DNA of 32,000 nucleotides from Vibrio vulnificus CMCP6 (GCF_000039765.1 NC_004460.2:1620001-1652000), one strand, 5' to 3'; counted from the stretch's first letter, positions 340-25,886 are shown. The notes: a model not told the origin generated them from the sequence alone. Translations and numbers: made by a program.

Positions 340-402
340 TAAAGGCTGCCCTATAATCAGCCGACCTCAAGGTTGGCCAATCAAACTGGAAGGAAATTCT
401 CC

Positions 403-1596
403 ATGTCGTCTGCATTTTACCAGCAAATTCGCGATCAACTTGAAGATGTGAAAGCGGAAGGTCTCTACAAATCTGAACGTATTATTACTTCTCACCAGCA
501 AGCAGCCGTTAAGATTGCCAGTGGCGAAGAAGTGTTGAACTTCTGTGCCAACAACTACCTAGGTTTGGCGAACCACCCTGCGCTGATTGAAGCGGCAAAA
601 GAGGGCATGGACGGCCACGGTTTTGGTATGGCGTCTGTGCGCTTTATCTGTGGTACACAAGACATCCATAAAGAGCTAGAGCAAAAGCTTTCTCAATTCC
701 TAGGTAAAGAAGACACCATCCTTTACACCTCTTGTTTCGATGCCAACGCGGGCCTATTTGAAACCTTGCTGGACAAAGAAGACGCGATCATCTCTGACGC
801 ACTAAACCACGCTTCTATCATCGACGGTGTGCGCCTATGTAAAGCAATGCGTTTCCGCTACTCAAACAACAACATGGCCGAGCTAGAAGAGCAATTGATC
901 GCAGCGGATGCCGCTGGCGCTCGCCACAAATTGATCGTCACTGACGGCGTGTTCTCAATGGATGGTGTGGTTGCGAACCTACCAGCAATTTGTGACCTTG
1001 CGGACAAATACAACGCGCTTGTGATGGTGGATGACTCTCACGCCGTCGGTTTTATGGGCAAAAACGGCGCAGGCACGCACGAGTATCATAACGTGATGGA
1101 TCGCATCGACATCATCACTGGTACGCTTGGCAAAGCGATGGGTGGCGCATCAGGCGGTTACACATCCGCAAAAGCAGAAGTGATCGACTGGTTACGTCAG
1201 CGTTCTCGTCCATACCTATTCTCAAACTCAGTGGCACCTGCCATTGTTGCCGCCTCAATTCGCGTATTGGATTTGCTACAAGAAAGTGGCGATCTACGTG
1301 AGCGTCTATGGGAAAACGCAGCGCACTTCCGCACGCGTATGGAAGCGGCTGGCTTCACCATGGGTGGTGCCGATCACGCTATCATTCCAATCATGCTAGG
1401 CGATGCCAAAGTGGCCGCAGAGTTTGCTGAGCGTGCCCTTGCAAAAGGCATCTACGTCATTGGTTTCTCTTTCCCTGTGGTACCAAAAGGCCAAGCACGT
1501 ATTCGTACGCAAATGTCTGCGGCGCACTCACGCGAGCAACTAGACCGCGCGATCGATGCCTTCATCGAAGTGGGCAAAGACATGGGTATCATCTAG
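403..1596 (+). CDS. kbl: 2-amino-3-ketobutyrate CoA ligase (glycine C-acetyltransferase)
   Basis: 397 aa from ATG 403, with a GGAAGGA Shine-Dalgarno just upstream. The track's TTG start at 373 adds 10 unconserved residues. The protein is colinear with E. coli Kbl as I recall it: [57 protein letters not shown]-lysine motif [15 protein letters not shown] and [15 protein letters not shown]. Confidence 0.97.
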
Positions 1597-1647: not shown

Positions 1648-2679
1648 ATGAAAATCAAAGCACTATCAAAGCTAAAGCCAGAAGAAGGCATTTGGATGAC
1701 CGAAGTGGACAAGCCTGTTCTTGGCCACAACGATCTGCTGATCAAAATTAAGAAAACCGCGATTTGTGGTACCGACGTACACATCTACAACTGGGACGAA
1801 TGGTCACAAAAAACCATCCCAGTACCTATGGTGGTTGGCCATGAATACGTGGGTGAAGTGGTTGGCATTGGCCAAGAAGTTCGTGGTTTTGAGATCGGTG
1901 ACCGCGTTTCTGGCGAAGGTCACATCACTTGTGGCCACTGTCGTAACTGCCGTGGTGGCCGCACGCACTTGTGCCGCAACACCATTGGTGTGGGCGTAAA
2001 CCGCACAGGTTGTTTCTCTGAATACCTTGTGATCCCAGCGTTCAACGCCTTTAAAATCCCTGCAAACATCTCTGATGATCTTGCGTCTATCTTCGACCCG
2101 TTTGGCAACGCAGTACACACTGCACTGTCGTTCGATCTGGTTGGTGAAGATGTACTGATCACCGGCGCTGGCCCAATCGGCATTATGGCGGCTGCGGTCG
2201 CGAAGCACGTTGGTGCGCGCCACGTCGTGATCACCGATGTGAACGAATACCGTCTAGACCTCGCACGCAAAATGGGTGTGACTCGCGCGGTGAACGTTGC
2301 CGAGCAGAAACTTGACGATGTGATGGCAGAGCTAGGCATGACAGAAGGCTTCGATGTGGGCCTGGAAATGTCGGGCAACCCATCAGCATTCAACTCAATG
2401 CTGAAAACCATGAACCACGGTGGCCGCATTGCACTGCTTGGCATTCCACCATCAGACATGGGCATCGATTGGAACCAAGTGATCTTCAAAGGCTTGGTGA
2501 TCAAAGGTATCTATGGCCGTGAAATGTTTGAAACTTGGTACAAGATGGCAAGCTTGATTCAATCTGGCCTTGACCTAACACCAATTATCACTCACCACTT
2601 CAAAGTGGATGATTTCCAGCAAGGCTTCGACATCATGCGCAGCGGCATGTCAGGCAAAGTGATCCTTGATTGGGAATAA
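1648..2679 (+). CDS. tdh: L-threonine 3-dehydrogenase (Zn-dependent MDR family)
   Basis: 343 aa, near-colinear with E. coli Tdh as I recall it: [35 protein letters not shown], structural-Zn cysteines [21 protein letters not shown], and the NAD fold [20 protein letters not shown]. The kbl-tdh order is the classical operon order. Confidence 0.97.
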
Positions 2680-2703: not shown

Positions 2704-2728
2704 AGCGCTCCGAAAGGGGCGCTTTTTG
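2704..2728. terminator. Hairpin terminator after tdh (possibly bidirectional)
   Basis: AGCGCTCC-GAAA-GGGGCGCT is an 8-bp stem with one U-G pair and a GNRA-type loop. It is followed by TTTTTG on the plus strand and preceded by an A-rich run that serves the minus strand. Confidence 0.75.
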
Positions 2729-2750
2729 TATTTCATAAAGGCGAAAACCA

Positions 2751-3218
2751 TCAGTTGACGTCGCAGAAAGCAAAATGCGATTGATGCTTGTCCACTTGTG
2801 ACGCACTGTTTTTGGCTGCCTGAACGAAGGAGATGGCAGCGCTAAATTGTGCACCTACTCCTGGCCAGTAATATTCATCATTGTCAGAACACAGGGTAAT
2901 GATGACGGGAGTGGTATCTAAAGTCACATCCTCATCTTGTTCAACATAGAGCGTATATCGAATCCGTTTATGTTGTTTGCCGCGAAGTGTCTCAATAACT
3001 TCAGCTTCATAAACAAACTGGGTTATAGAGCCAGTATCAGATTCGTTGATAACGTCGACATTAGTGTGTCTAACAACCGCTGAATAAGGTGTGTTGACAA
3101 TGGCTTCTATTAAAAATGGTGCTTGTGTCTCGAACACTTCGCTATCTGTGTCACTTTTAGCTGAAGTGCTACTCGCCATCAAAACAACCAATATAAGAAG
3201 GTTCATATTACTTTTCAT
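2751..3218 (-). CDS. Hypothetical secreted protein
   Basis: The likely start is MKSNMNLLILVVLMASSTSA (Sec-type signal peptide) rather than the track's start at 3248. No family is recognisable by eye. The gene is AT-rich. Confidence 0.55.
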   Translation of the reverse strand: MKSNMNLLILVVLMASSTSAKSDTDSEVFETQAPFLIEAIVNTPYSAVVRHTNVDVINESDTGSITQFVYEAEVIETLRGKQHKRIRYTLYVEQDEDVTLDTTPVIITLCSDNDEYYWPGVGAQFSAAISFVQAAKNSASQVDKHQSHFAFCDVN

Positions 3219-3273
3219 ATGGTTATATAGAGTCTTGTGCTTAAGCAATGAGTTAAATCTAAGTTTTTAAGCA

Positions 3274-3759
3274 TCAATGCTGACCGCCGATACCTATGTA
3301 TAAGTTGATGGTTTCATCTAATATGGCATTTTCGTAACGTTCCTTTGTTCCTTGCACCTCTAAAGTATCAAATTTAGCTTCAATCATTCCGTCGAGTTCA
3401 TTGCTGTTTTTGAACCATGTTGGGAAGAAATCGGTATTAATGACCAAATTATGCTTGTTCTTTATTTCGTTGATTATTGTATTGGTTCTCGATTTGACCT
3501 TATTGAACGATAAAGAACTTGAAGAATAGTGGATGTCGTAGTTGTTCATCAGACAATATTGATTCTCGAAGATCAGTTGGTCGCCATCTGAAAAAATGTA
3601 GTAGTACCTCAATATGTTTTCACCACTTTCTGTATCTATACCTTCAAAAACGTAGGAGACCGAAGAGCTTTCAACCAAAGGCATGATTGGTGATTTATCA
3701 CAAGAGTATGAATAAAAGGAAAATGTTGATAAAAATATTGTGATTAAAAAGTGCCGCAT
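3274..3759 (-). CDS. Hypothetical secreted protein or lipoprotein
   Basis: The likely start is MRHFLITIFLSTFSFYSYSC, a hydrophobic leader ending in Cys (weak lipobox). No family is recognisable. The gene is AT-rich. Confidence 0.5.
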   Translation of the reverse strand: MRHFLITIFLSTFSFYSYSCDKSPIMPLVESSSVSYVFEGIDTESGENILRYYYIFSDGDQLIFENQYCLMNNYDIHYSSSSLSFNKVKSRTNTIINEIKNKHNLVINTDFFPTWFKNSNELDGMIEAKFDTLEVQGTKERYENAILDETINLYIGIGGQH

Positions 3760-3961
3760 GTTTATTTCTGACAAGCTAGTAGGTTTAGGGACATTTTTAA
3801 ACAAGGATTGCGTATTTCAATAGTGATAGGAGTATTTCTGCCGTTCATTAGGCAGATATCAAATTACTAGAAAGGATTAACTTCATTTTTATAAGTTATC
3901 CCTGTCCGAATTGGATCTTTAACGGTGTTGATTGCACATTGTTCAATGTCACGCGATTTCG

Positions 3962-4030
3962 AGCTAACCAGATAGTGAGTCAGCGTTTATGGGGCTCACT
4001 CACTTACCTCTGGCTTGCAACTCTAAGTCG
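3962..4030 (-). repeat. Short attC-like imperfect palindrome (candidate decayed attC of the OGFr-like cassette)
   Basis: CTAAC-CCAGATAGTGAGTCAGC...GGCTCACTCACTTACCTCTGG forms a bulged inverted repeat about 50 nt 3' of the 4076-4585 ORF. The minus-strand core GTTAGCT fits GTTRRRY with one mismatch. The opposite core is not recognisable. Confidence 0.3.
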
Positions 4031-4075
4031 CTAGGGTATACAAGCCAACTTGATCAGATGCTTACTTCTTGCTTT

Positions 4076-4585
4076 CTATTTTTCTCTCTCTTCTAGAGCA
4101 TAGCACCAATACTGCTGCGTTTTCTCCGAGACACTGCCCACTTGCTTGGTGGCAGAGAGGAGGAAATCACACAGGTTGCGTGCAATGCGCTCATTACCCA
4201 ATAGATACAAGCTGCGAATTGCTCGCGTTAATCGTAGTTGGTTGTGGTCGTGGTGTTTAAGCCAGACATGATTAGTAGGGGTGAGCGGCAGTAACGATGA
4301 GATTTCATCGCCATTTCTCACCATGCCCCAAAATTCGAGCATAAGATCGAGAGCCTTCAAATGTGCGGTGCGAAGGGCTAAAGAGTTGGCAAATTGCTCT
4401 CTGTCTTGCGCTGTTACAAGAGGAGCGTGTTGATTGAACTTGGTTCCCTCGTCAATCGGAAACAGCACTTGTATGTATTTGTGGTCGTGCTCCAACCAAA
4501 AGTGGTTGTAAGCCAGCAACTGTTCTATGTTGCGACCGAACTTGTCTGGCGCTTCGCCAGAGATGAAACGAGCAATCTCACTCAT
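4076..4585 (-). CDS. Opioid-growth-factor-receptor (OGFr) N-terminal-domain-like protein
   Basis: 169 aa. The block WLEHDHKYIQVLFPIDEGTKFNQHAPL...ALDLMLEFWG...HNQLRLTRAIRSLYLLG parallels the human OGFR conserved region as I recall it (LEWNHSYIQWLFPLRE...AKPL...YELMLGFYG...HNNLRITRILKSLGELG). Confidence 0.7.
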   Translation of the reverse strand: MSEIARFISGEAPDKFGRNIEQLLAYNHFWLEHDHKYIQVLFPIDEGTKFNQHAPLVTAQDREQFANSLALRTAHLKALDLMLEFWGMVRNGDEISSLLPLTPTNHVWLKHHDHNQLRLTRAIRSLYLLGNERIARNLCDFLLSATKQVGSVSEKTQQYWCYALEEREK

Positions 4586-4661
4586 TGTAAATCCTGTAAA
4601 ACTCTGTAGTGGGGGAATGTGTTTTGAGTGAAGCCTTCACAACGCCACAGTGAAGCGGTGG

Positions 4662-4925
4662 TTAACGTTTTTCACACTCTTTTTTATCTTTGAATAAGTT
4701 TGTAAGTGCCGTTGCTTCCGTCCGCTCAAGATCTTGGTATGCGTCAAAAGCATCGCCATTTTTGTAGCCTAATAAGCATAAACCGCCTTGAATGATCAAG
4801 GTAAAAAGCGACACAACAAGCACCAAAAACGGGATCACACCAAACATATCAATCGAAATCAAAATGGAAGACAAGACGATAGCAATGGCAGAAATCACGA
4901 CTTTAACTTTGCTAGTAAAAACCAT
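4662..4925 (-). CDS. Small two-pass membrane protein, unknown function
   Basis: 87 aa with two hydrophobic spans (VVISAIAIVLSSILISI and VIPFLVLVVSLFTLIIQGGLCLL) and a charged C-terminal tail. Confidence 0.5.
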   Translation of the reverse strand: MVFTSKVKVVISAIAIVLSSILISIDMFGVIPFLVLVVSLFTLIIQGGLCLLGYKNGDAFDAYQDLERTEATALTNLFKDKKECEKR

Positions 4926-5009
4926 AACGCACTCTAATATTGGGAATTTTAGCCATTTTATAAGTTCTCAGTTGCGCATAGTGATTGCTTGGTCACATGA
5001 AAGCGACAG

Positions 5010-5113
5010 AGACCACGCCGCAGGGCGGGTATGTAGTGATGTGGGGGGCCGATTTGAGTTCTAAGCCCAACGCATGTGGGGATGCGTTGGGGATTCTTAA
5101 ATGCTTTGTTAAC
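5010..5113 (-). repeat. attC, same family but shortened, with a mutated R' core
   Basis: The right part, CCCAACGCAT-GTGGGG-ATGCGTTGGGGATTCTTAAATGCTTTGTTAAC, aligns with the family motif CCCAACG..GCGTTGGGAATCACTCTTAAACAG.TTGTTA. The left part, ACCACGCCGCAGGGCGGGT, aligns with CTAACGCCGCATTAAGGTGT, but TAAC is replaced by CCAC. Confidence 0.6.
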
Positions 5114-5162
5114 TGAGCGCGTCACTATTCACGCTCACGAATGGCAAGAGCGCATGATCATA

Positions 5163-5990
5163 TTATTTTTCTTCAACAAGTCGAAAACCTACATATGGCT
5201 CTCGAATATCAATATGCCTTGCCCAGTAGGTATGAGGAACTAAATCTTGTCCCGGTAAAAACCACCCTCCGCCGACAAACAAGTAAACTGCACATTCTTG
5301 ACTTCCTTTTTCTCGTTTAGGTAAACATTGCTCTACCCACTCTCCTACATTTCCTAGCATGTCAAAAACGCCAAACCGATTTGGAGGAAAAGAGCCTACT
5401 TGTGCGGTTTGTTTATTACTCCAAGCTGTGCCACAGTTATTGCAGTTAGCGTTGCTGGCCTTAGGTGGGTTTCCCCAATCATAACTCTCCGACATACCTG
5501 CTCTCGCAACATACTCCCACTCAGCACGCGTAGGTAAGCGGTATTTTTTACCAAACTTGGCATTAGCCCAGTCTATATAACCTTGCACATCAGAATAACT
5601 TACATTGATAACGGGACGAGTTCCTCTACCCCAACCCATATCATCAGGGTATTGACAGACTTCCCCTTCTACACATGGCGCTTTTATAGGACGATTTTTA
5701 TATGCCCAGTCAGATTTAGGCTTTTGACAGCCTCCATCAGAAACACAGGCGTCCCATTGTTCCATTGTGACTTCAAATTTACCGATGCGAAAAGAAGGAA
5801 CTGCAATATTGCGTAATATAAACTCTGGTTCGCTGCAAATTCTCGCATCATCAGGACATGTATAAAGATCAACGTTACCCTTTGGAACATCTATCATTTC
5901 TAAAATAGTAAGTTGACTCTCTGCATACACTTTCAAAGAGATACAGCTGATACTTACAATCCAAAAAAACAGACTAACAACTCTTACCAC
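5163..5990 (-). CDS. Secreted formylglycine-generating-enzyme (FGE/SUMF1) family protein
   Basis: 275 aa from a GTG start with an AGAGGG Shine-Dalgarno. The signal peptide is VVSLFFWIVSISCISLKVYA. FGE-sulfatase domain motifs are present: FRIGKFEVT..QW, YRLPTRAEWEYVARAG, FGVFDMLGNVGEWV and GFRLV. Confidence 0.8.
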   Translation of the reverse strand: MVRVVSLFFWIVSISCISLKVYAESQLTILEMIDVPKGNVDLYTCPDDARICSEPEFILRNIAVPSFRIGKFEVTMEQWDACVSDGGCQKPKSDWAYKNRPIKAPCVEGEVCQYPDDMGWGRGTRPVINVSYSDVQGYIDWANAKFGKKYRLPTRAEWEYVARAGMSESYDWGNPPKASNANCNNCGTAWSNKQTAQVGSFPPNRFGVFDMLGNVGEWVEQCLPKREKGSQECAVYLFVGGGWFLPGQDLVPHTYWARHIDIREPYVGFRLVEEK

Positions 5991-6023
5991 ATTACCCTCT
6001 CTTAAATAACGACCAATTGCCAG

Positions 6024-6149
6024 TTAACACCGCGTTAAGGTGTGGGTGGCGCCACCACGAAACCTAACCAGACCACCGCAAATACAAAACCCAACGATGG
6101 AATGAAAAATGCCACGCGTTGGGAATCACTTTTAAATTGTTTGTTAGTT
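6024..6149 (-). repeat. attC recombination site (VCR-like, ~125 bp)
   Basis: Plus-strand TTAAC...GTTAG with imperfect internal dyads. It aligns along its whole length with the copies at 6782 and 8124. Its reverse complement resembles the V. cholerae VCR layout as I recall it (TAACAA..TTAAGAG..CAACGC....GCGTTAG). Confidence 0.85.
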
Positions 6150-6205
6150 GCCCATCTCAAAGCCTAGTGCTAACATTTGTACACACACCAACAAAGGAAT
6201 ACATC

Positions 6206-6490
6206 ATGGACACTAGAATTCAATTTCGTGTTGATGAAGAAACAAAACGCCTAGCTCAACAAATGGCTGAGAGCCAAGGTCGCACTCTTAGTGACGCATG
6301 CCGTGAACTTACTGAGCAACTCGCTGAACAACAAAGAAAAACATTGTCTCACGATGCATGGCTAACTGAACAAGTAAATCTAGCATTTGAGAAGTTTGAC
6401 TCAGGAAAATCCGTTTTCATTGAGCACCAAACTGCTAAATCTCGAATGGAAGAGCGCAAAGCCAGAATCCGTAATCGAGGTAAGCAATGA
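6206..6490 (+). CDS. RelB/DinJ-family (ribbon-helix-helix) antitoxin
   Basis: 94 aa from ATG 6206 with an AAGGAA Shine-Dalgarno. The track's start at 6119 would run into the attC. The N-terminus TRIQFRVDEETKRLAQQMAESQGRTLSDACRE is DinJ/RelB-like. The stop overlaps the toxin start (ATGA). Confidence 0.8.
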   Translation: MDTRIQFRVDEETKRLAQQMAESQGRTLSDACRELTEQLAEQQRKTLSHDAWLTEQVNLAFEKFDSGKSVFIEHQTAKSRMEERKARIRNRGKQ

Positions 6491-6765
6491 TTTTATGGGA
6501 AGAAGAGTCACTTAATGATCGTGAAAAGATCTTCGAGTTTCTCTATGACTTCAACCCTGATGTGCCAGAAAAAACTGACAACCTCATTGAAGCAAAAGTA
6601 GAAAACTTGCTTGAACAACCTTTAATGGGTGTACAACGAGATAGCATCCTCGGTCGATTACTCATTATTCCTGAGATTTCGATGGTTATCTCTTACTGGG
6701 TCGAGGGCGATATCATCCGAGTTATGCGTGTCCTCCACCAGAAACAAAAATTCCCTACGGATTGA
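6487..6765 (+). CDS. ParE/RelE-superfamily toxin
   Basis: 92 aa. ILWEEESLNDREKIFEFLYD...GRLLIIPE..MVISYWVEGDIIRVMRVLHQKQKFP is the typical RelE/ParE fold signature. The gene is coupled by a 4-nt overlap to the upstream antitoxin. Confidence 0.85.
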   Translation: MILWEEESLNDREKIFEFLYDFNPDVPEKTDNLIEAKVENLLEQPLMGVQRDSILGRLLIIPEISMVISYWVEGDIIRVMRVLHQKQKFPTD

Positions 6766-6781
6766 TTGCTTCCTCTGGGGA

Positions 6782-6906
6782 ATTAACGCCCTGTTAAGGG
6801 GTGAGCAACGCAATACCTAAGCCGCCGCATACCACCTTAAACACTAAAACCAACGCATAGTAAAAATGCCACGCATTGCGAATCACTCTTAAACAGTTTG
6901 TTAGAA
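6782..6906 (-). repeat. attC recombination site (VCR-like, ~125 bp)
   Basis: ATTAACGCCCTGTTAAGGGGTGAGCAACGC....GAATCACTCTTAAACAGTTTGTTAGAA. It is homologous to 6024-6149 and 8124-8251 and abuts the stop of the 6915 ORF. Confidence 0.85.
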
Positions 6907-6914
6907 TATTGCCT

Positions 6915-7458
6915 TTAGGGAGCATTCATACCTGACACTTTAAGATGGCCTACATATATGAGCTTGGAGTTATTTGCTAGATCTTTCGGTGTTGTTTGGC
7001 TTGAAAACCACTCCAATGGTACTCCTGCCTTTTTATAAGAAAATGCTACTAGCTCAGAACAATAAAAGTCGCTCTCTGGTGAAATTAGGTTAGCCATTGT
7101 TGGTAGCATTCCAAGTGCTGCTCTACCAGCACCACTCGAACCAATAGCACCTGAAAGATCGTATTGTTTACCAAGTTGTTTTCTGGCATAGGTCATAATC
7201 TTATTTTTGAGCTTCAGATAGGCCAGGGTATCTATATACGACTGTATAAAGATCGCCTTTCATAACATCGACTAATTTGACTTTGACTACTTCGGGATCA
7301 ATAGCTTCAATAATATGCTCACCACCCACATAAAGTCGAGCATGACTGTAATTTGAAATTGTTGCCAATTTTACGACCTTTGAAACTGCTTCATTTGTTG
7401 TCGATAGAATGACATCACCTTTTTGGAGTTGCCCAAGTGTGATAACTTTAGTTGACAT
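6915..7458 (-). pseudogene. Permuted papain-like (YiiX/C92, NlpC/P60-superfamily-like) hydrolase, split by a frameshift
   Basis: The 7201-7458 ORF carries the His half (GDVILS..SNYSHARLYVG) and the 6915-7196 ORF carries the Cys half (DFYCSELVAFSY). The downstream frame stays open upstream as ..LKNKIMTYARKQLGK. Adding one A to the A5 run (plus-strand T5 at 7204-7208) would fuse both halves into ..EAQKNKIMTYARKQ.. Confidence 0.65.
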
Positions 7459-7467
7459 TTTATTCCC

Positions 7468-7968
7468 TTACTTAGATGTATACGAGATCCATGTAGCATT
7501 GACATTATCCAACGAGACATTAGACCTAATATCAATTGTGGTAAATTTTAGGCCCATTAAATCTATGTCGCTTTCAGGAAAGAACAATATACCCGTAGAT
7601 TGTCCCTTTGGCCGAAATTGGTATTTTTTTCCCTCATTAGAGGTAGCTACTATTTCGATTTCAATTTCAAAATTTGGCCATTTAGACGATACAAATACAT
7701 CCCTATCATACGCTGAATCTGATGCAATCATTTCTGTTGAAAAAGTTAAATTCTCTGGTTCACTTCCGTCAAAAATCAACCTTATCATTTGATTTCGATT
7801 CAAAGCAGTAACATCAACATTAAATTTTGACCACCCCACAGATTTAATTTTCTTTGCGCTAAACATGTCTACAATGTGCGGATTGCGGAAAAACTGTGAA
7901 AATAGATGATTGTCACACCCTAGAAGAATAAATGGGAAACAGATAAAAATAATTAATTTAAACCTCAC
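7468..7968 (-). CDS. Lipoprotein, unknown function
   Basis: 166 aa from a GTG start with a TGGAG Shine-Dalgarno. Lipobox: MRFKLIIFICFPFILLGC. The stop lies 9 nt before the hydrolase ATG and overlaps its Shine-Dalgarno, so the two genes share one cassette. Confidence 0.65.
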   Translation of the reverse strand: MRFKLIIFICFPFILLGCDNHLFSQFFRNPHIVDMFSAKKIKSVGWSKFNVDVTALNRNQMIRLIFDGSEPENLTFSTEMIASDSAYDRDVFVSSKWPNFEIEIEIVATSNEGKKYQFRPKGQSTGILFFPESDIDLMGLKFTTIDIRSNVSLDNVNATWISYTSK

Positions 7969-8123
7969 GCCAACTCCAAAAATTACGATTTAATAGCAGT
8001 TATTTTTATATGGTCAGTGAGTTTTTCAATATAAAAGCATACTTTTTCAACAAATCTCGACTAACGTCAAAAAATCATCAGCGAGAATTTTTAGTTTTAT
8101 AAGCAACGAATGTTAGTGAAATA

Positions 8124-8251
8124 TTCTAACGCCGCATTAAGGTGTGAGCAACGCTACCACGAAACCTAACCATACCACCATAAACACAAAACCCAACGAT
8201 GGAACGAAAAATGCCAAGCGTTGGGAATCACTCTTAAACAGATTGTTATGT
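8124..8251 (-). repeat. attC recombination site (VCR-like, ~128 bp)
   Basis: TTCTAACGCCGCATTAAGGTGTGAGCAACGC....GGGAATCACTCTTAAACAGATTGTTATGT. The minus-strand R' core GTTAGAA fits GTTRRRY. The site starts 3 nt after the stop of the 8255-9901 ORF. Confidence 0.85.
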
Positions 8252-8254
8252 CAC

Positions 8255-9901
8255 TTAGTTTACAAAAACTACTTTGTCTTCAGTTTCAATATCTAGGGCT
8301 CTATATAACATCTTGTGTACCTTTAAATGACTAGACCTCTTAACTTCACCCTTACTAACACTAGACTGATCTATGTAAGACCATAGGAATGTATCCAAAG
8401 AACTGACCTTAACACCAACAGCGCCAACACGATATAAACACTGAAGTAACGCATATAGCACATCAGATTCTTTTACAGCCTTACCTTCGAAGTAAGAATG
8501 TACGATTTTCACGCAAGGATCAGTGTTTTTTGTATCACTCAACGACATGACAACATCATTTAAACGTTCTTGGTTTATAGAAGAACGAGAAAATGTTGCA
8601 GGTAACCCTCTGAGTAGCTCAGCAGTCTCTTCAAAAGATGGATACATTTCACCCCATTCTTCTTTTAAGGACTTTAAACGTTTCTCTGAATAGTTGGCTT
8701 CAGCAGCTATTAGCGCCCTCCAAGATACACGGTCTCGTTCTGAAGCAATATTAAAGGTTTCATTTACAAACTGGAGAACATCCCGTGGTCTTCTGAGCGT
8801 ACGTTCTAATATGAAGTCCATAGCGGTTTGTCCGCCGCCTTTCTTTGGTTTAGGGAATATATGCTCTAACTTAACTGTGTCTTTGGTATATTGGCTTTTA
8901 AAGACCTCGTTTATCCTCAATTCAACCAGTTTAGTTAATTCTTCGTTACTCCACTTGAGTTCAAGCATGTAAGATTCGTATTTTTCTTCTTGAAACCCAG
9001 AGTCTCTAGTTTGATCATAAACCAAATCTAATAGGTCTTTTCGTAATGCAGCTATAATTTTAACCGTTTCGATCTTACGGAATGACTTTACTTCTTCGAT
9101 TAAAGCTCTAATAAATCGACACCTTGTAGAAGTATTGGCCCAATTTTCATCCAACTGGTCAATTACGATATAAAATTTCTTTTGTGTATCATCAAAGGAA
9201 TACTGTGCGAGCAATTCCAGAACTTCATTTAATTTTTTTATTTGTAAGCCATTAACAACCTGACTTGCTCGTTGCTTAATCTCCGTTCTTTCTTGCTCTG
9301 ATAGTTTTTCGACACCATCGAGACTTAAAGACACACCCGAATATTTTGCTCCAATTGAAGCTTTAGTATCATTTTCTAGCTTCGACGTGATTTCGCGAAG
9401 GTGTTCATCTGTATCTAACCAGAACTTATCCCCCCACTCGTTGAAGTACTCTATAGCTTTTTTCTTTGCCTTATCTCTTCGAAGCCAAGAAAAAATGCCA
9501 TCAGTAAAACGCTGTCCATCCTGCTCATTTTTAATGTCGTATCTGAGTTTTAGTATTTCTACAACAAGTAGATGACGCCATAGCAGCTTGTAAAATAAAT
9601 CTAATTTTATATCTAAAGCATCGAAAAACTTGATTATATCCGAGTACTCCAAAAATCGGACTGAAATATCATTAGGGTCTAGCCTCGCACAGTGGTCTGT
9701 ACTTGTTTCAATTTTATGAATTAAAGCGCTTTTCCCTGAGCCAGTTCTCCCAAGAATAACTGCTGCGGGGTTACTGACGTCCAATAATTCGTCAAGATCT
9801 CCCTTATCTACAAAACACTTGTCTAGTAAAGAACTATCTGTTTCAGCATCTAAAGCTCCGACCTTCAAGTTTCGTGTAATTTTTATTCCTGAATCACTCA
9901 T
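8255..9901 (-). CDS. P-loop NTPase (STAND/AAA-like core) with an uncharacterised C-terminal region
   Basis: 548 aa with an AGGAAGG Shine-Dalgarno 5-6 nt before the ATG. Walker A is GRTGSGKSA (aa 51-59, nt 9725-9751). Walker B is FYIVIDQLDE (nt 9146-9175). Downstream elements are KIIAALR, LELKWSNEEL and TLRRPRDVLQF. Only about 45 aa precede the P-loop. No nuclease, protease or TIR-type motif is visible by eye. Confidence 0.8.
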   Translation of the reverse strand: MSDSGIKITRNLKVGALDAETDSSLLDKCFVDKGDLDELLDVSNPAAVILGRTGSGKSALIHKIETSTDHCARLDPNDISVRFLEYSDIIKFFDALDIKLDLFYKLLWRHLLVVEILKLRYDIKNEQDGQRFTDGIFSWLRRDKAKKKAIEYFNEWGDKFWLDTDEHLREITSKLENDTKASIGAKYSGVSLSLDGVEKLSEQERTEIKQRASQVVNGLQIKKLNEVLELLAQYSFDDTQKKFYIVIDQLDENWANTSTRCRFIRALIEEVKSFRKIETVKIIAALRKDLLDLVYDQTRDSGFQEEKYESYMLELKWSNEELTKLVELRINEVFKSQYTKDTVKLEHIFPKPKKGGGQTAMDFILERTLRRPRDVLQFVNETFNIASERDRVSWRALIAAEANYSEKRLKSLKEEWGEMYPSFEETAELLRGLPATFSRSSINQERLNDVVMSLSDTKNTDPCVKIVHSYFEGKAVKESDVLYALLQCLYRVGAVGVKVSSLDTFLWSYIDQSSVSKGEVKRSSHLKVHKMLYRALDIETEDKVVFVN

Positions 9902-10016
9902 CTAAGCCTTCCTATGTGCACACTCACTTAAATATACACCGAGACTCATATTCATTCTGTGAGCAAGTTATTGAGTTGAATAAGTGACATAACTGCTGCT
10001 AGCAATCACTGTGTTT

Positions 10017-10121
10017 ATCTAACCTTTGTAATTGTGTTTTAGGCGTCACCATGAATGCCAAATTAATGTGCAAATACTGGCATAGCACTCAATAAAGTCA
10101 TTACTCTTTAAGTGGTTATAC
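10017..10121 (-). repeat. Candidate fifth, divergent attC bounding the NTPase cassette
   Basis: ATCTAAC (minus-strand GTTAGAT, a perfect GTTRRRY) ... CATTACTCTTTAAGTGGTTAT. The right arm resembles the family motif CACTCTTAAACAG.TTGTTAT. There is an internal dyad ATGCCA-N17-TGGCAT. The centre is not homologous to the other copies. Confidence 0.4.
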
Positions 10122-10198
10122 TCATGCTTTTATCGCAAGTTAATGATTTGATATATATAGAAAAAACTTATAAAGAACTGAAGGTTTAGACCGTCTTG

Positions 10199-10747
10199 TA
10201 ATGAGCGCTGACACTATGGTTTTCTCAACAAACTTCCAGCGCACTCTGCGCAATGGATTCTGCATCACGCTCGTGCCCCGCTATCCAGAATGACGAGCGT
10301 AGAGAGCGGTGTTTGGGGGGACTTTAAGCGGCAGTTGTCTGTGAAGAGGCCGATAAACACACAGAGCCTACCATCTGTCATCCCAGCAAGCCTAGGCGCG
10401 ACTAGGGATCCATTCATCGACGAGCGCTAGAGCGGCGGTTTGCTCACTGAACTTTCAGCGCACTCTGCGGAATGGATTCTGCATCACGCTCGTGCCTCGC
10501 TGTCCAGAATGACGAGTTTAAAGAGTGATGTTTGGGAAAGGGCTTTAAGCGGCAGTTGTCTGTGAAGAGGCCGATAAACACACAGAAACCACCGCCTGTC
10601 ATTCCAGCAAGCCTAAGCGCGACTAGGATCCATTCATCGACGAGCGTTAGAGCTGTGGTTTTCTCACCGAACTTTCAGCGCACTCTGCGCAATGGATTCT
10701 GAATCACGCTCGTTCCTCGCTATCCAGAATGACGAGCTTAAAGAGTA
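10199..10747. repeat. Noncoding tandem repeat, unit ~219-220 bp, ~2.5 copies
   Basis: The landmark CAGCGCACTCTGCG recurs at 10237, 10456 and 10676. Copies differ by scattered substitutions. No ORF of 60 aa or more is present on either strand. Confidence 0.9.
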
Positions 10748-10791
10748 CCTTCTAGAGAAAGCACGATCGTTAAGCGTTCTTATCTCTGGTG

Positions 10792-11307
10792 TTATTTCTG
10801 CTCGACAAAGATAAGACGCTCAGTATCAAATCCACGTTCTTTGGCCATGGCGACGAAGGTATCGATGAGCGATTGGTCGACGGTCGGGGTGCGTGCTAAA
10901 AGCCATAAATAGTCGGTATTAGGACCAGAGACAAAGGCGTATTGGTAGTCGGTTTTGTCGAGCGCAAACACCACGTAAGATCCGTAAAACGGGCCAAAGA
11001 ACGAGACTTTCAAGTAACCTTCAGAGTCGCCATTGACGAAGTAGGCTTTTCCTTCGGCTTCTTTCCATTGGTTTTCATCGGCCAAAAAGCCTTTGTTGAG
11101 TACCGCGACACCGCCATCGTCTTTTAAGGTGTATTCGGCGGTAACTTGAGTTAATCCCGCTTCAAAAGAGTGGTCTAGACGGGCGATTTCGTACCATTTC
11201 CCTAAGTAATTTTGTAGGTTGAACTCGTCGACGGGTTTGACGGTTTCTGGCATGCCAAGGCAGCCACTCAGTGTGATGGAAAGTGCCAACAGTAGAATTT
11301 TTCTCAC
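10792..11307 (-). CDS. blc: Outer-membrane lipocalin lipoprotein Blc
   Basis: The likely GTG start at 11307 has GGAG 6 nt upstream and gives MRKILLLALSITLSGC (lipobox). YLGKWYEIARLDHSFE, KGF...W..AEGKAYF, LKVSFFGPFYGSY and DYLWLLARTP parallel E. coli Blc as I recall it. Confidence 0.9.
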   Translation of the reverse strand: MRKILLLALSITLSGCLGMPETVKPVDEFNLQNYLGKWYEIARLDHSFEAGLTQVTAEYTLKDDGGVAVLNKGFLADENQWKEAEGKAYFVNGDSEGYLKVSFFGPFYGSYVVFALDKTDYQYAFVSGPNTDYLWLLARTPTVDQSLIDTFVAMAKERGFDTERLIFVEQK

Positions 11308-11449
11308 AATTCGCTCCTGAAAAATGAGTCTCACATTGCCTTCAAGTCTAAGCGGTTGAACTAAAAAACAGAAGCGACATATGGGTAGATTATGTGAAGG
11401 CGTTTGGGAGCAATAGTAAGTAGCATCTCAGCGGAAAAGTGTTAGAAGG

Positions 11450-11482
11450 TAAAAATAAAAAGCGCTCGTTGATCGAGCGCTT
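11450..11482 (-). terminator. Rho-independent terminator after mipA/ompV
   Basis: On the minus strand, AGCGCTCG-ATCAA-CGAGCGCT is followed by TTTTTATTTTT. Confidence 0.8.
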
Positions 11483-11524
11483 TGCTTATTCCCTAGAGGG
11501 GGAGTTTTGTGGGAATTCGAGTTA

Positions 11525-12253
11525 TTAAAACTTATACGCCCCGCCTAAGCTGATTTGCCAAGCAAGGTCGTTTTGAATCAGCGGGCTATTCGAATCATGG
11601 TGTTCAAACTCCACTTTGGCAATGGCTAGCCACTGCTCGGTGATATCGTAGAGTGAAATCAAACCAGCCTTGTAAACCCAAGTCTCATCAGCATCAAATT
11701 GTGCTAAACCGGACGCGGCAGATTCTTGCGCAGAGACGTTGTAAAGATGCTGCGAGAGTTTTTTGGAGCGGTAATCCACTTCAACATATGGGGAGAGCAC
11801 CCACTGATCAAACGGGGTATCAAAAGCGCGACCAAGGTGAAGTTGAATCTCATAACCGTCGTGAACATTGGTGACATCTTGCAGGTAGGTGAGGCGTGCG
11901 CCAACTGTTCCCACGGTGATACCAAGATCGGCGTTACCATCACGGTTTTTGATGCCGCGAGGAATGTCATCGAAATCGTCCGACACTTCAGCAAAACGCA
12001 GGTTGCCCGACAAACCCAACCAAGGGGTGAGTGAGTAATTGGCTAAGCTGCCATCAATAAAGCCGTATTTTCCGTTGTAAAACAAAGAGGGCTCAATGCC
12101 AGCTTTGGCCCCATCCGTTGAAAATGCGGATTCGCCGTAGGTGATACCCGCGCCAACAAACGCGTAATCTTGGTATTGTTCTTGTGCCAACACAGGAGCA
12201 GACAGTACCAGCAGGGGAATGGACACGCGCATGCCGCGCATAAGATTTTTCAT
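11525..12253 (-). CDS. MipA/OmpV-family outer-membrane protein
   Basis: 242 aa with signal peptide MRVSIPLLVLSAPVLAQE. The sequence shows a beta-barrel-like alternating pattern and ends in the aromatic terminus GGAYKF. The overall resemblance is to the MltA-interacting MipA/OmpV family. Confidence 0.75.
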   Translation of the reverse strand: MKNLMRGMRVSIPLLVLSAPVLAQEQYQDYAFVGAGITYGESAFSTDGAKAGIEPSLFYNGKYGFIDGSLANYSLTPWLGLSGNLRFAEVSDDFDDIPRGIKNRDGNADLGITVGTVGARLTYLQDVTNVHDGYEIQLHLGRAFDTPFDQWVLSPYVEVDYRSKKLSQHLYNVSAQESAASGLAQFDADETWVYKAGLISLYDITEQWLAIAKVEFEHHDSNSPLIQNDLAWQISLGGAYKF

Positions 12254-17276: not shown

Positions 17277-17304
17277 GCTGATTTGGTAGGCGTTCGTGTG
17301 GAAG

Positions 17305-17727
17305 TTAGAAGCTACGTTGCATATTTACGCGGTTCGCCACTTCCAAATATTCAAAGATATGGGTGGGAATGTTTTGCAAAAATGCGGTTAGATCGACTTC
17401 CATTGCCTCGGTAAAGCCAGCGCGGCATGGGAATGGGTCGGTGTTACCCACAATAAGCAGCTTCGGTGTTTTTCCTTCCCAAATGAGTTTTGCTTCGTAT
17501 TCAGGATTATCGACTTCAACAACACATGTATTTACTTCTGAACGGAAAATCCCATCTTTGATGGTATAGCCATTGTAAAAAGTGATTGGTGTTTTTGAAG
17601 AGGTTGGGAAAGTGACTGGTGCGTCTGGCACCGAACTGCCTTCACCAGGAAAAGTAATGGCTGTGTTTGCAGAGGCAACAGATGAAGCAATAAGTGTCAG
17701 TAGGCCAAGTAATTTTATCGTTTTCAT
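17305..17727 (-). CDS. Small secreted protein, unknown function
   Basis: The likely start MKTIKLLGLLTLIASSVASA (signal peptide) has an AGGAAG Shine-Dalgarno. The protein is 140 aa with two Cys. No family is recognisable by eye. Confidence 0.55.
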   Translation of the reverse strand: MKTIKLLGLLTLIASSVASANTAITFPGEGSSVPDAPVTFPTSSKTPITFYNGYTIKDGIFRSEVNTCVVEVDNPEYEAKLIWEGKTPKLLIVGNTDPFPCRAGFTEAMEVDLTAFLQNIPTHIFEYLEVANRVNMQRSF

Positions 17728-18163
17728 GATACTTCCTATTTTTTTAGTTTGGGAACATTCCCAGATGGAAATGTATAGCACAAGTAAATGAGAATGAATA
17801 TCAATTGTATTTATTTTGGCAGAGTGTCACATATTATTTTTTTATGTGTGGTTGATTATTGATAGTTTTAACGCAGTGAGGGCTTTTCTGATTTCGGATT
17901 GGTTGTTTTTTGTTCTTTTTTACAAAATGTCATTTTCCATTTTTGAAAAATAGACCGAGAGAAAACAGCGAAATGTTTTTAAAACAGTATGTTATGCCAA
18001 ATTTATCCTAAATTAGAGCTGGCTAATTTAGTGGTATGTTATGTAAGTGTCAGGGCAGAAAATAATTTATGACGTGGCAATAACAGAATTTTCCTACAAG
18101 CAATTAAGCTGTGTGTCTTACAAAACAGACAAGGAGTGTTGTTGATAAAAAGAGAAAGTAAAC

Positions 18164-18751
18164 ATGACAGTAGAAAAAGTATTGATTATCGACTCACAAC
18201 CCCTTTACGCAAGAGCGCTCTCCTCATTGGTCAAAGAGGTGATTAATCCCCTTGAAGTGACCATTACGACAAACACTAAGCAGATCCTCGACTGTGTGCG
18301 CGAGGAAAATGTGGACCTGATCATCATGGACGTTTTAATTGAAGGCCGAGATGGCATCAGTTTAGCGAAGTCAATTTTTGCCAACGGTTATGTTGGAAAA
18401 CTGCTTTTTGTCTCTTCCAATGACTATGACAGCCTGTCCAACGTAGCGTATACCATCGGCGCGCATGGGTATTTGACCAAGTACGCGAGTCAATCAACAC
18501 TTAGCAATGCCATTGTTAACGTGCTGAAAGGGTATACGATGTTTAAAGCTCAACCTGCTCAGTCTGATCAACAAGCGTTATCTGAACGCGAAGTCACGGT
18601 GCTGAGTTACCTAATGCAAGGCTACAGTAATCAGAAGATCTCCGAGCTTTTGATGCTGAGCAACAAAACCATCAGCACCTACAAAGCTCGAATTTTGAAG
18701 AAGTACAACGCGAAGTCCATTGTCGAAATCGCGGAAATCCATCGCTCCTAA
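18164..18751 (+). CDS. NarL/FixJ(LuxR)-type response regulator
   Basis: The REC domain shows VLIIDSQP (DS instead of the acidic pair DD), DLIIMDV, FVSS and YLTK. The C-terminal LuxR-type helix-turn-helix is LSEREVTVLSYLMQGYSNQKISELLMLSNKTISTYKARILKK. Confidence 0.85.
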   Translation: MTVEKVLIIDSQPLYARALSSLVKEVINPLEVTITTNTKQILDCVREENVDLIIMDVLIEGRDGISLAKSIFANGYVGKLLFVSSNDYDSLSNVAYTIGAHGYLTKYASQSTLSNAIVNVLKGYTMFKAQPAQSDQQALSEREVTVLSYLMQGYSNQKISELLMLSNKTISTYKARILKKYNAKSIVEIAEIHRS

Positions 18752-18834
18752 GTTCTGTTTTAGATGTTTGCGAATTGCCAATCCCCATTCGTGCAGATAA
18801 CGTCGATAAACGATGGGGATGGTGAAGCAAACCA

Positions 18835-20190
18835 CTATCGGCGGCTCTCCTTGGCTTTATAGAGCGCTTCATCTGCTTGCATCATCAATTCTTGCAATGT
18901 TTCGCCTTGTGCTCGCGTGGCAACCCCTGCGCTTACTGCAATCGTAAGATCTTTATAAGGTAGAGTGCTGTTTTTTAAATGCTGCTTGAGCTTTCCAACC
19001 AGTTCACTGGCTTTCCTGTGGTCACAATCTGGCAATATCGCCAAAAATTCATCTCCTCCGGTTCGAATGAGGAAATCACCACGGCGAAATGTGGCCTTCA
19101 TGGATTTACCGACTTGGCAAATCACTTCATCACCGACGTGATGGCCAAAGGTGTCGTTGATGTTTTTAAAACCGTCGCCATCAATGGCGATCACCGTGTA
19201 TTGAGAATCTTCCAGCGTGTCTTTAAACAGAGTGTCATTGAAGATCTTTCGATTGTGCAGCCCGGTTAGCTCGTCTTTGATCACCTCGGAAGAGACTTCA
19301 TCTAACTGCTGTTTTCTGGTTTTGGATTGTTCATACAGACTCAAGTAGACAAAAAACAACAGCAGAAAAACGAAAAACAAATACGAATAATCAATCACCA
19401 ATTTTGAAAGTGGGTAGGAAAATAAGAAAATGGTTTTGTTATCCGCAATGTAGGTTTTGGTGTAGGCAAACTTAGCTAAAGGATAGCCATTGTAGGTTAA
19501 CAGCGTGGTTTTAAACCCTTGGTTGTAGATAGTTTCCACATTTCTGTCTTTGAGGTCGTAAAAAAGGCTAAAGACGTATTCGCCGACAATTTCATTTTCC
19601 TCTTCGCTTGAATAGACAGGGCTAGAGACAGAAATTAAGTTTTCTCCTAGATCGCTGTCGTGGTAGATGGTGGACACCACTGCGCGATCCAACAGTTGAT
19701 CTGGCCATGCGTACTGAGTGCAGACAAATTGTGTTTTACACCAGTTTTCGCTGAACTTGCGCGCATCGACTTTGAAGCCGTTGACTTTGCGATCAAGCAG
19801 ATACTTTTTACCGGAGTAAGAGCGGTAATAAAAAACGGAATTTTTATTATTAAACAAGCTCATGAAATAGTTTCTTGTTTCATGCATGGTTTTATAGGCA
19901 ACCGCTTCATAATAATCCAATTCTGAATTGTCTATGGCGTAAATATACTCTTCAAACGAACGTTGAGTGGATTGAATGATGTTCTTCCTATCCTTTTTCT
20001 CAGAGGCATTGATGTTGGATTGGGTTAATAAGCCCATGGTTACCACGTAGTTTTTAATACTTTCTAAACGGTCTGCGTGCCTATCAAATCGCTCCACTTC
20101 AATGGAAACGGCATAAATAGCCAGTGCAATTAAACACGATAAAAAAGAAAGTGTGGCAAACAAAAAGGCCAGGCTTAAACTTTTTTTCAT
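18835..20190 (-). CDS. Membrane-anchored diguanylate cyclase (GGDEF) with a periplasmic sensor domain
   Basis: The first transmembrane span is near the N-terminus, followed by a ~230-aa extracytoplasmic region and a second span (YLFFVFLLLFFVYLSLY). GGDEF domain elements are TGLHNR, IDGDGFKNINDTFGHHVGD and an intact GGDEF. An RxxD I-site (RRGD) lies 5 residues upstream. Confidence 0.9.
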   Translation of the reverse strand: MKKSLSLAFLFATLSFLSCLIALAIYAVSIEVERFDRHADRLESIKNYVVTMGLLTQSNINASEKKDRKNIIQSTQRSFEEYIYAIDNSELDYYEAVAYKTMHETRNYFMSLFNNKNSVFYYRSYSGKKYLLDRKVNGFKVDARKFSENWCKTQFVCTQYAWPDQLLDRAVVSTIYHDSDLGENLISVSSPVYSSEEENEIVGEYVFSLFYDLKDRNVETIYNQGFKTTLLTYNGYPLAKFAYTKTYIADNKTIFLFSYPLSKLVIDYSYLFFVFLLLFFVYLSLYEQSKTRKQQLDEVSSEVIKDELTGLHNRKIFNDTLFKDTLEDSQYTVIAIDGDGFKNINDTFGHHVGDEVICQVGKSMKATFRRGDFLIRTGGDEFLAILPDCDHRKASELVGKLKQHLKNSTLPYKDLTIAVSAGVATRAQGETLQELMMQADEALYKAKESRR

Positions 20191-20224
20191 TTTCTTTCTC
20201 GGCTGATGGTGGTGATTGTTATTT

Positions 20225-20717
20225 TTATAGTGAAACGAGTTTTGCTAAATCAACGATGTTTTCGACATTGAATTTATTCAGCAATCGCCGTTTGTAGGTA
20301 CTAATGGTTTTATCGCTGATCGACAAAATTTTGGCTATTTCACGGTTGGTTTTTCCTTTTAAAAGGTAATTCATTACGGCCGCTTCTCGGTCTGAAAGTT
20401 CTGGTTGAGCTTGGTTGACCGCAGAATTAGGCTTGAATTTGAAAAAGGTGTAACCGTTGATCACCGCGTCGATAGCGTCTTTCAAAATGCGTTGATCTTC
20501 GGATTTGCACACATAACCATCCGCGCCTAAGCGAAAGGCTATTTCGCTAAACAGCTGGCTGGTTTCCGCGGAAAAGAAGATCACTTTGCCTTTATAACCG
20601 TGGGATTTGATGCGTCTTAAGAAGTCAAATCCATCACAGTCTGAAAGATTAACGTCTTGATAGCGAAACAGACCATTGGGTGATCATCAAAGATCAGGCA
20701 GTTGACTTTATTTATCA
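20225..20717 (-). pseudogene. NarL/LuxR-type response regulator, disrupted by an internal deletion plus frameshift in the REC domain
   Basis: From ATG 20717 the sequence reads MINKVNCLIFDDHPMVCFAIK, then runs to a stop (20616). A different frame continues ..YQDVNLSDCDGFDFLRRIKSHGYKGKVIFFSAE.. into the 20225-20584 ORF, which carries the LuxR helix-turn-helix LSDREAAVMNYLLKGKTNREIAKILSISDKTISTYKRRL. About 35-40 residues normally found between the DD pair and the phospho-acceptor Asp are missing. Confidence 0.75.
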
Positions 20718-20719
20718 TG

Positions 20720-25526: not shown

Positions 25527-25816
25527 CTTATATTCCTCAAATATGGAATATAAGATTAAAATTATGTGAGAATTTGTCAAATTTTGAGATTTTAATAAAT
25601 TCACATAACCTTTTGAATTTTAAAAATAAATTTTGATTGTGTAAGAATGTTCCTACAGAGGAATCGTAATAGGATTACAAATGGAGATAGGTGAGGATTA
25701 TATTAATTTGAATTTTATTTACGTTTAATGAACGTGGGAAAGTCGGCGAAAGAAAATAATGAAAGTAAGTGTGTATGTCAATGTTGTTCAAAATAAACGT
25801 TTGTGAATTTGAAGAA

Positions 25817-25858
25817 TACCAAACGAGTTGAGTAATGGCGTTTCAACGTCGTTTGGTA
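25817..25858 (-). terminator. Possible terminator hairpin after ygiW
   Basis: TACCAAACGA ... TCGTTTGGTA is a 10-bp stem with a long (~22-nt) loop, followed on the minus strand by ATTCTTCAAATT. The geometry is atypical. Confidence 0.3.
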
Positions 25859-25886
25859 CGCAGAGCAACACAGAGGCAGATGTTAT

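Follow-up and report, generated by a model that had tools for sequence, protein, structure and literature searches.

Clusters of attC sites that lack an integron integrase (CALINs) are common in genome scans, and it is rarely clear whether such clusters are dead debris or working parts. The definition of a CALIN is taken from PMC4889954; that survey reports an integron integrase (IntI) on another replicon for 3.5% of CALINs and no nearby intI pseudogene for 95% of them, and names integrase loss and rearrangement among the proposed origins. IntI enzymes also insert cassettes at double-stranded GWT sites in genomes (attG), and small CALINs have been proposed to arise by cassette insertion into genomes (bioRxiv 10.1101/2022.09.11.507474). 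Here, a 32-kb stretch of Vibrio vulnificus CMCP6 DNA was analysed (the window; all coordinates refer to it). Between tdh and blc, the window carries a variable gene block that a first-pass annotation, made from the sequence alone, had read as a CALIN.

The best explanation of this block, to which we assign a probability of about 0.68, is a CALIN with live cassette exchange at one conserved junction (J) and with the integrase supplied in trans. The segment 2728-9993 is a cassette array without an integrase of its own, and its attC family is shared with the large chromosomal integron of the species. Cassettes would be inserted and removed at the fixed G|TT crossover of J and at the attC sites. 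The enzyme would most likely be IntIA, encoded beside the big integron on the other chromosome and acting in trans. J might act like an attI site, though it is not the cognate attIA, and might best be described as a natural double-stranded genomic site of the attG type. Homologous recombination between similar attC sites would also remodel the array. The new features described here are a hypervariable array, one conserved junction with at least 11 cassettes, the boundary of a STAND NTPase cassette in three contexts, and a nested series of cassettes.

The attC family and the search for an integrase

The block contains three direct repeats of about 122 nt (6025-6146, 6784-6903, and 8127-8248), with a mean column identity of 80%. 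On the plus strand, each has TAAC at its low end (6025, 6784, and 8127) and GTTA at its high end. The repeats are spaced 759 and 1343 bp apart, which are also the lengths of the cassettes. A 21-base core sequence taken from them was found in over 120 stretches of Vibrio, Photobacterium, Aliivibrio, Pseudoalteromonas, Shewanella, and relatives, often several times per 8 kb; a profile search of those stretches gave 541 full-length copies, with a maximum of 13 per 8 kb. In three loci (L013, L061, and L106, from V. atypicus, Vibrio sp. M260121, and V. fujianensis; L-numbers denote comparison loci or contigs), copies of the family directly follow a divergently oriented integrase open reading frame (ORF). 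These three ORFs pass the TIGR02249 'integron integrase' model, with 489-505 bits against a cutoff of 265. Attached to this search is one observation of another kind: a 3.4-kb contig of Corynebacterium lemuris (L024, coverage 360x) also carries an attC of the V. cholerae repeat (VCR) type, and a Vibrio-like contaminant is its probable source.

Single-sequence DNA folding of the three repeats was not significantly better than that of shuffles (z -1.7 to +0.1). This may be due to the unpaired variable segment of about 70 nt between the arms. Because such folding is uninformative for sites of this kind, covariation analysis was used. The consensus fold of 116 aligned members (bottom strand) is a classical attC hairpin. 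Its R box (TAAC/GTTA) is followed by two unpaired bases and a stem of four pairs; next come an L box, whose 3' arm carries two bulged bases, an inner stem, and a long variable segment. The fold has 21 pairs, 13 of which show compensatory changes. Pairing was found in 97.6% of cells, compared with 85.8% in shuffles, and double-sided changes numbered 262, compared with 73; pairing fell to 36-51% when the partner was slid by 1-3 columns. Pair 14-129, for example, is UA in 43 members, CG in 31, AU in 22, and GC in 9, and the terminal-box pairs 6-10/133-137 are kept in 111-115 of the 116 members. All three window repeats keep the bases that stay unpaired at column 121 (T) and columns 125/126 (A or G). 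The arms of the published VCRWT bottom-strand substrate (Table 3 of PMC2095811) are identical to the V. mimicus rows of the alignment, and the VCRΔG and VCRΔGTT mutant substrates of integrase-binding studies delete exactly the bulged positions (PMC2095811).

The window was scored with a family-specific covariance model (R1) built from these 116 members, and not with the generic attC model of IntegronFinder. The three repeats, here named attC1 (6025-6146), attC2 (6784-6903), and attC3 (8127-8248), scored 99.8 bits (E 4e-23), 134.5 bits (E 7e-32), and 121.9 bits (E 1e-28), respectively; the next-best match in the 32 kb had 11.4 bits. In each of them, the plus strand is the folding, recombinogenic bottom strand according to the model. 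attC2 is near the family consensus, with one non-standard pair. The spacer stem has two mismatches in attC1 and three in attC3, which is chimeric, and the spacer triplets of the arms are non-complementary (GCG/TTG in attC1 and GCA/CAG in attC3). attC1 is conserved between strains, where orthologous sites score 92-106 bits. The likeness to the VCR layout, which the first-pass annotation had pointed out, is borne out by these scores, the covariation, and the published substrate, and the failure of an attC covariance model that it had named as a refutation did not occur with this structure-aware, family-specific model.

The repeats might instead belong to another dispersed class (REP, MITE, or terminator-like) that merely ends in TAAC and GTTA. 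The single-sequence folds, no better than shuffles, would be consistent with this idea, as would Rfam, in which the window had no match at the gathering threshold. However, no attC family was among the Rfam matches, members of the family sit in arrays beside validated integron integrases, the published VCR substrate is matched, the covariation of the attC hairpin is strong, and the cassette boundaries fall exactly at G|TT. A repeat of a non-attC kind is thus extremely improbable.

An integrase was searched with the IntIA proteins of V. vulnificus and V. cholerae. The best tblastn match in the window had an E value of 1.8, and no matches were found within ±10 kb of tdh in ten strains. Pfam scans of selected window ORFs (at least about 110 aa) found no Phage_integrase domain, and tblastn found no intI remnant under the 220-bp tandem repeats to the right of J. 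To the left of the window, other strains carry ordinary genes. The window thus lacks a detectable tyrosine recombinase, as had been noted, and neither an intI nor a cognate attI was found next to the array, be it in the window or, for ten other strains, in about 10 kb around it. As also noted earlier, the orientation of the array puts the expected integrase to the right; the same orientation relative to intIA is seen in the integron of the species.

The V. vulnificus intIA adjoins rplT-rpmI-infC-thrS on replicons of 3.26-3.39 Mb. On its cassette side, 116 attC sites of the family were found in 80 kb (69-144 bits, all in one orientation), and the scores of the window sites fall inside this range. 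The main integron of the species is therefore filled by the same attC family, a check that had been suggested with the first-pass annotation. The tdh-blc array sits on replicons of 1.79-1.85 Mb. These replicon sizes indicate that the array is on the small chromosome and intIA on the other chromosome.

The block has three attC sites, all on one strand and 759 and 1343 bp apart, and no associated integrase. It differs from a complete integron, since it has no intI and J is unlike attIA. A genuine attC cluster without an integrase in the window falls under the CALIN definition, so the block is almost certainly a CALIN of VCR-type attC cassettes, which is a known kind of element, and the earlier label can be kept. 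Of the two origins that had been proposed with it, the seeding of an orphan cluster at a distance from the resident integron is preferred to a remnant of integrase loss, because no intI remnant was found and J is unlike the cognate attIA.

Strain variation and the junction J

The exact Tdh protein is present in thousands of assemblies. The first ten loci with an identical Tdh were used for the strain comparison, and 27 tdh-blc loci were used for the junction comparison. In the ten loci, the genes proximal to tdh are alike and the genes on the blc side differ; the latter include a Tae4 pair, DUF6119, NACHT, reverse transcriptase, DUF4236, DUF2971, and DUF6602 genes. The content of the interval differs in nearly every V. 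vulnificus strain. This variability supports the earlier description of the block as a hotspot of accessory functions, and the comparison of the tdh-blc interval that had been proposed showed it to be differently filled between V. vulnificus strains, not identical. V. cholerae and one other Vibrio lineage carry unrelated ordinary genes and no attC after tdh, and thus the array is not genus-wide. There is no clean empty site in other species, because the synteny downstream of tdh simply differs in these two lineages.

Three cassettes with intact attC sites are found in the window. Cassette 1 (8130-9992, minus strand) consists of a STAND-type NTPase ORF (8255-9901, 548 aa; Pfam nSTAND1, 28.9 bits, also AAA_16) and attC3. 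Cassette 2 (6787-8129, minus strand) contains a 166-aa ORF (7468-7968), a frameshifted C92 amidase pseudogene (7201-7458/6915-7196), and attC2. The two pseudogene pieces scored 26.3 and 16.8 bits with Pfam Peptidase_C92, both under the cut-off of 27; the intact 181-aa C92 gene of L008, which carries a PF05708 match, aligns 97-100% with both of them. Cassette 3 (6028-6786, minus strand) has a reverse-oriented toxin-antitoxin pair and attC1, and was found in 9 of the first ten strain loci. The pair consists of a RelB-like antitoxin (6206-6490, plus strand; Pfam RelB, E 3e-4) and a ParE toxin (6487-6765, plus strand; Pfam ParE_toxin, E 7e-12); the antitoxin start at 6206 is based on translation and on 94-aa genes called in other strains. 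Reversed toxin-antitoxin cassettes also occur in the true integron of the species (L153 and L154). The statement that each repeat lies directly 3' of a minus-strand ORF holds for two repeats (STAND, 8255-9901; C92 fragment, 6915-7196) and fails for 6025-6146, where the plus-strand RelB/ParE pair is found. The right-to-left cassette organisation itself survives testing.

The boundaries of these cassettes coincide with the differences between strains. BLASTN break points against the window fall at the attC ends 6023, 6904, and 8130, and all strains resume at about 9990. L008 lacks exactly 8131-9989, which is cassette 1. The 5' boundary of the STAND cassette, G|TTATGTCAC, is identical in three contexts (the window, L136, and L138). 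In the window, the cassette begins with G|TTATGTCACTTATTC right behind J; it begins in the same way behind a canonical attC in L136 and behind a different attC in L138, a contig of 5.4 kb that holds five attC sites and unrelated cassettes. The contig L139 begins inside the STAND cassette and so gives the 3' boundary only. The end of the STAND attC is followed by three different next cassettes. The C92 cassette follows attC3 in the window and directly follows J in L008; its start, TTAGAATATTTCAC, was found directly at J in L008, L145, L148, and L149. Together, these loci form a nested series: J|C92 in L008, J|STAND|C92 in the window, and J|278aa-DUF1848|STAND|C92 in L136. The series looks like what stepwise insertion at J, or stepwise deletion between J and attC sites, would leave.

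J (9990-10216, minus strand; the conserved part is 9993-10216, and 9990-9992 overlap cassette 1) reads ...AGTGATTGCTAGCAGCAG|TTA on the minus strand. The crossover separates the G at 9993 from position 9992, where the first cassette starts (TT at 9992-9991, A at 9990). The array therefore ends at the precise junction 9993|9992, and not at about 10120 as had been annotated. On the minus strand, …AGTGATTGCTAGCAG(C/T)(A/G)G is common to all of the 27 loci, which diverge immediately beyond G|TT(A). At least 11 different cassette starts abut J at the same G|TT; the junction core is GTT in 26 loci and ATT in the remaining one (L007). The identity of J between strains is 87.6-100%, and four different first cassettes were found on J haplotypes that are at least 98.7% identical. 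About 230 bp to the right of the J crossover are unique to this locus among all fetched loci.

Two other assignments for J were tried and rejected. J as a copy of the cognate attIA was ruled out by alignment scores at shuffle level; the crossover of the true V. vulnificus attIA, …GATGTATAGAGAGCG|TTA, was located by two strains with different first cassettes. The segment 9988-10121 (GTATAAC…GTTAT, about 133 nt) as a diverged fourth attC of the family was rejected because the model did not detect it and it folds no better than shuffles. A possible resemblance of J to attI1 (GCCCTAAAACAAAGTTA) was also considered and plays no part in the argument.

Judging from the junctions, J and the intact attC sites probably are, or recently were, substrates of IntIA. 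The competence of J is read from its junctions, since J is an attC neither by the model nor by folding. The repeated use of a single conserved site that is neither an attI nor an attC makes service in trans by the integrase of the other chromosome the most likely arrangement. The narrower proposal, that J is a natural and repeatedly used attG-type platform for cassette recruitment on the small chromosome, served in trans by IntIA, is put forward tentatively and at less than even odds. J might instead be the orphan attI of a lost integrase or an attC that has diverged beyond recognition.

Several points weigh against exchange at J by IntIA. The support for recombination is wholly comparative, and exchange of whole segments via the conserved flanks could spread a few old site-specific events. 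J resembles neither attIA (local alignment scores 17-19) nor the other three Vibrio attI regions compared (17-21 over all four; shuffle mean about 18 ± 2), and it is not detected by the attC model, with neither strand folding better than shuffles. attI sites are recognised only by their cognate integrase (PMC2095811). The replicons carrying intIA and the array were compared across different assemblies and not within one. No cassette is common to the tdh-blc arrays and the 80-kb integrase-proximal array; the only exception to this lack of sharing is the STAND cassette in L138 and L139, which are short contigs whose placement in the big integron is presumed. The spacer stems of attC1 and attC3, two of the three intact sites, are broken. 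In the chimeric attC3, the top-strand 5' end of about 15-28 nt is that of the native attC of the STAND cassette, and the rest is that of the attC preceding the C92 cassette in L001. Because this crossover falls within the attC, away from G|TT, it is attributed to homologous recombination or gene conversion. Broken stems and chimerism thus indicate that part of the variation is due to homologous recombination.

Two other histories of the array were considered. The array might be a translocated piece of the big integron, or the result of a one-time insertion at a secondary site, which is now static and differs between strains only by homologous recombination and transformation, through the conserved flanks and the similar attC sites. 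The chimeric attC3 and attC1, with crossovers inside the site, would be expected from such a history, and conserved anchors are present on both sides (the J region, and the toxin-antitoxin cassette with attC1 and attC2). Rearrangement is also a proposed route to CALINs (PMC4889954). However, homologous recombination cannot create the 11 distinct junctions at the same G|TT; each of them needs a site-specific event at J, either insertion or deletion between J and an attC. The presence or absence of cassette 1 is also exact to the nucleotide. A static array is thus quite unlikely.

The array might also be the remnant of a complete second integron, with J as the attI of an integrase deleted from the right side; the cassette diversity would then predate the loss and would later only have been reshuffled. 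The geometry agrees with this history, since the orientation is right and the integrase is expected to the right of J. J is attI-like in that its left half is conserved and the cassettes beyond G|TT vary, and the space to its right is filled by an unusual, expandable 220-bp tandem repeat. Integrase loss is itself a proposed origin of CALINs (PMC4889954), although 95% of CALINs there have no nearby intI pseudogene. Neither the window nor the ten strains gave an intI remnant with an E value below 1, and J is unlike the four Vibrio attI regions, which resemble one another (29-45 by local alignment score). Moreover, the four first cassettes on near-identical J haplotypes and the nested series suggest a turnover more recent than such a loss. 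A remnant integron is thus considered unlikely, and CALIN exchange at J with IntIA in trans is retained as the best explanation.

The decayed end and the flanking regions

Toward tdh, the attC sites are decayed. Fossil cassette 4 (5052-6027, minus strand) carries an FGE-sulfatase-like ORF (5163-5990; Pfam FGE-sulfatase, E 1e-40) and a decayed, short attC (5052-5116). This site scored 11.4 bits (E 0.61) with an inner hairpin z of -2.3; its L box and inner stem persist, as does the 3' GTTAAC, and the 5' TAAC is gone. Fossil cassette 5 (4586-4925, minus strand) has an 87-aa ORF (4662-4925) and a truncated attC near 4586-4680. The orthologous ORF in L146 runs into an intact attC (9276-9401, 86 bits), and the window site diverges right after AAGAGTG. 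The three repeats counted by the first-pass annotation are the intact sites; the decayed and the truncated attC have to be added. The last conserved gene of the array is an ORF with an OGFr_N domain (4076-4585, minus strand; E 1.5e-19), which is present in most strains and has no attC left. Thus, as far as the sequences indicate, the array grades from a live end at J to a fossil end at tdh, with decayed or truncated attC sites and nearly fixed content.

Beside the tdh terminator, a strain-variable insert of 1353 bp (2728-4080, minus strand) carries ORFs of 165 aa (2751-3248) and 176 aa (3274-3804). Its break points are 2727|4081 against 9 of the ten strains, and among the first ten strain loci it was matched only in L002; L134, L135, L146, and L148 have ORFs of similar size there. 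No Pfam match, attC match, or other recognisable end was found for this insert.

The strain-specific cassettes (STAND, NACHT, and reverse transcriptase; AbiC-like in the integron) have a defence flavour that is suggestive only. PADLOC matched none of ten array proteins to a known defence family, and therefore no defence claim is made beyond the weak nSTAND1 Pfam match. An IS-type transposase (HTH_38 and rve) lies within the tdh-blc array of two strains (L004 16394-17362 and L146 4655-5623). Reverse transcriptases of the group II intron type (RVT_1 and GIIM) were found after tdh (L006 11818-13101), after intIA (L131 2302-3585), and inside the integron array (L156 659-2020).

By Pfam, the genes flanking the array are kbl (373-1596, plus strand) and tdh (1648-2679, plus strand) on the left, and blc (10792-11334, minus strand), mipA (11525-12253, minus strand), and an MBL-fold gene (minus strand) on the right. 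The ORFs of the tdh-blc block are mostly on the minus strand. The GC fraction is 0.34-0.47 within 3000-10000, compared with 0.45-0.53 in the flanks, in agreement with the AT-richness estimated by eye. In the kbl-tdh spacer, a perfect 7-bp tandem repeat (CTAGTAC) occurs 4.3 times at 1601-1630; the BLAST alignments of L006, L008, and L010 split at this repeat, suggesting variation in copy number.

A noncoding tandem repeat of 220 bp (10217-10746, 2.4 copies) separates J from blc, as the first-pass annotation had described. It has 2 to 11 copies among strains and was found only at this locus among all fetched loci. Folded as RNA, the minus strand gave a z of -2.8 and the plus strand a z of 0.05, and Rfam had no match at E ≤ 1 on 9900-11600. 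Some strains carry lipoprotein-like ORFs between blocks of the repeat (L001 16900-19300, also L002, L007, L008, L136, and L142-149). These ORFs have 195 aa (weakly Blc-like, BLASTP E 6e-4) and 166 aa, and a duplicated 3' piece of blc lies beside one of them. No attC was found among the 220-bp repeats or lipoprotein ORFs of other strains. The zone can be regarded as a second variable zone that adjoins the array and is not of the integron type.

A third variable spot lies between blc and mipA (about 11371-11451), where the window carries nothing inserted. In other strains (L005 17184-18578, L008, and L001/L004/L007), some carry a gene with an HSDR_N domain followed by a weak attC-like match (20 bits, E 0.03); 207-aa and 154-aa ORFs are also found. 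Since some strains carry these extra genes, blc is not a clean outer boundary of the array, contrary to the earlier description. The terminators of tdh (2701-2726) and mipA (11459-11483) resemble each other: both are GC-rich hairpins (AAAGCGC…GCGCTTT), and one is inverted relative to the other. The outermost break points between strains, 2727 and 11452, coincide with these hairpins, which thus bracket the whole variable island including blc. Farther right in the window (17300-26300), two more stretches of low GC, at about 17.5-21 kb and 24-26.5 kb, contain genes for c-di-GMP and two-component signalling and no attC. These encode a GGDEF protein (18835-20190), an EAL response regulator (20720-21919), and a hybrid histidine kinase (21873-25604), together with LuxR-type regulators (18164-18751 and 20225-20584).

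Comparison with known integron systems

The locus offers a clean natural series, with a fixed junction, at least 11 first cassettes, one cassette in three contexts, and a nested order. The series makes the question of debris or working parts testable in a culturable, naturally competent human pathogen. If J is an IntIA substrate, cassettes can be stored and swapped at a dedicated site that lies apart from the integron, and the range of places to look for adaptive, possibly defence, cassettes would be wider. If J is also an attG platform, cassettes would dock at two places in V. vulnificus, only one of which belongs to an integron, and the locus would be population-level field evidence for a genomic-insertion route so far shown in laboratory assays. 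The live-to-fossil gradient also shows how a cassette, after decay of its attC site, turns into a fixed chromosomal gene.

Like the CALINs of PMC4889954, the array has three same-strand attC sites at distances below 4 kb, lacks a neighbouring integrase or pseudogene, and belongs to a genome with an IntI on another replicon. It differs in the conserved multi-cassette proximal junction and the gradient from live to fossil, neither of which is mentioned in the part of that survey used here. With the Vibrio superintegron it shares the attC family, including the hairpin, the bulged bases, and the length, as well as small ORFs of unknown function, a reversed ParE toxin-antitoxin cassette, and at least one identical cassette (the STAND NTPase) in a dense array elsewhere. 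However, the array is on the other chromosome without intIA or the cognate attIA, two of its three sites have mismatched arms, and its attC density is lower: three intact sites are found here, whereas a true array has one site per about 690 bp.

J can be compared with two kinds of integron sites. Like attI sites (attIA and attI1), it has a conserved left half followed by a variable cassette after G|TT, and new cassettes were apparently added at that end; it differs in that no integrase adjoins it and that its sequence is unrelated to the attIA of V. vulnificus and to the three other Vibrio attI regions. Like attG sites, its closest known counterpart, J is neither attI nor attC and has a GTT (GWT) core where cassettes join. 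The attG sites were defined experimentally in Escherichia coli with IntI1-3 and have hotspot motifs to the right of the cleavage, whereas that half of J is cassette sequence, and the evidence here is natural variation in V. vulnificus, in which one site appears to have been reused.

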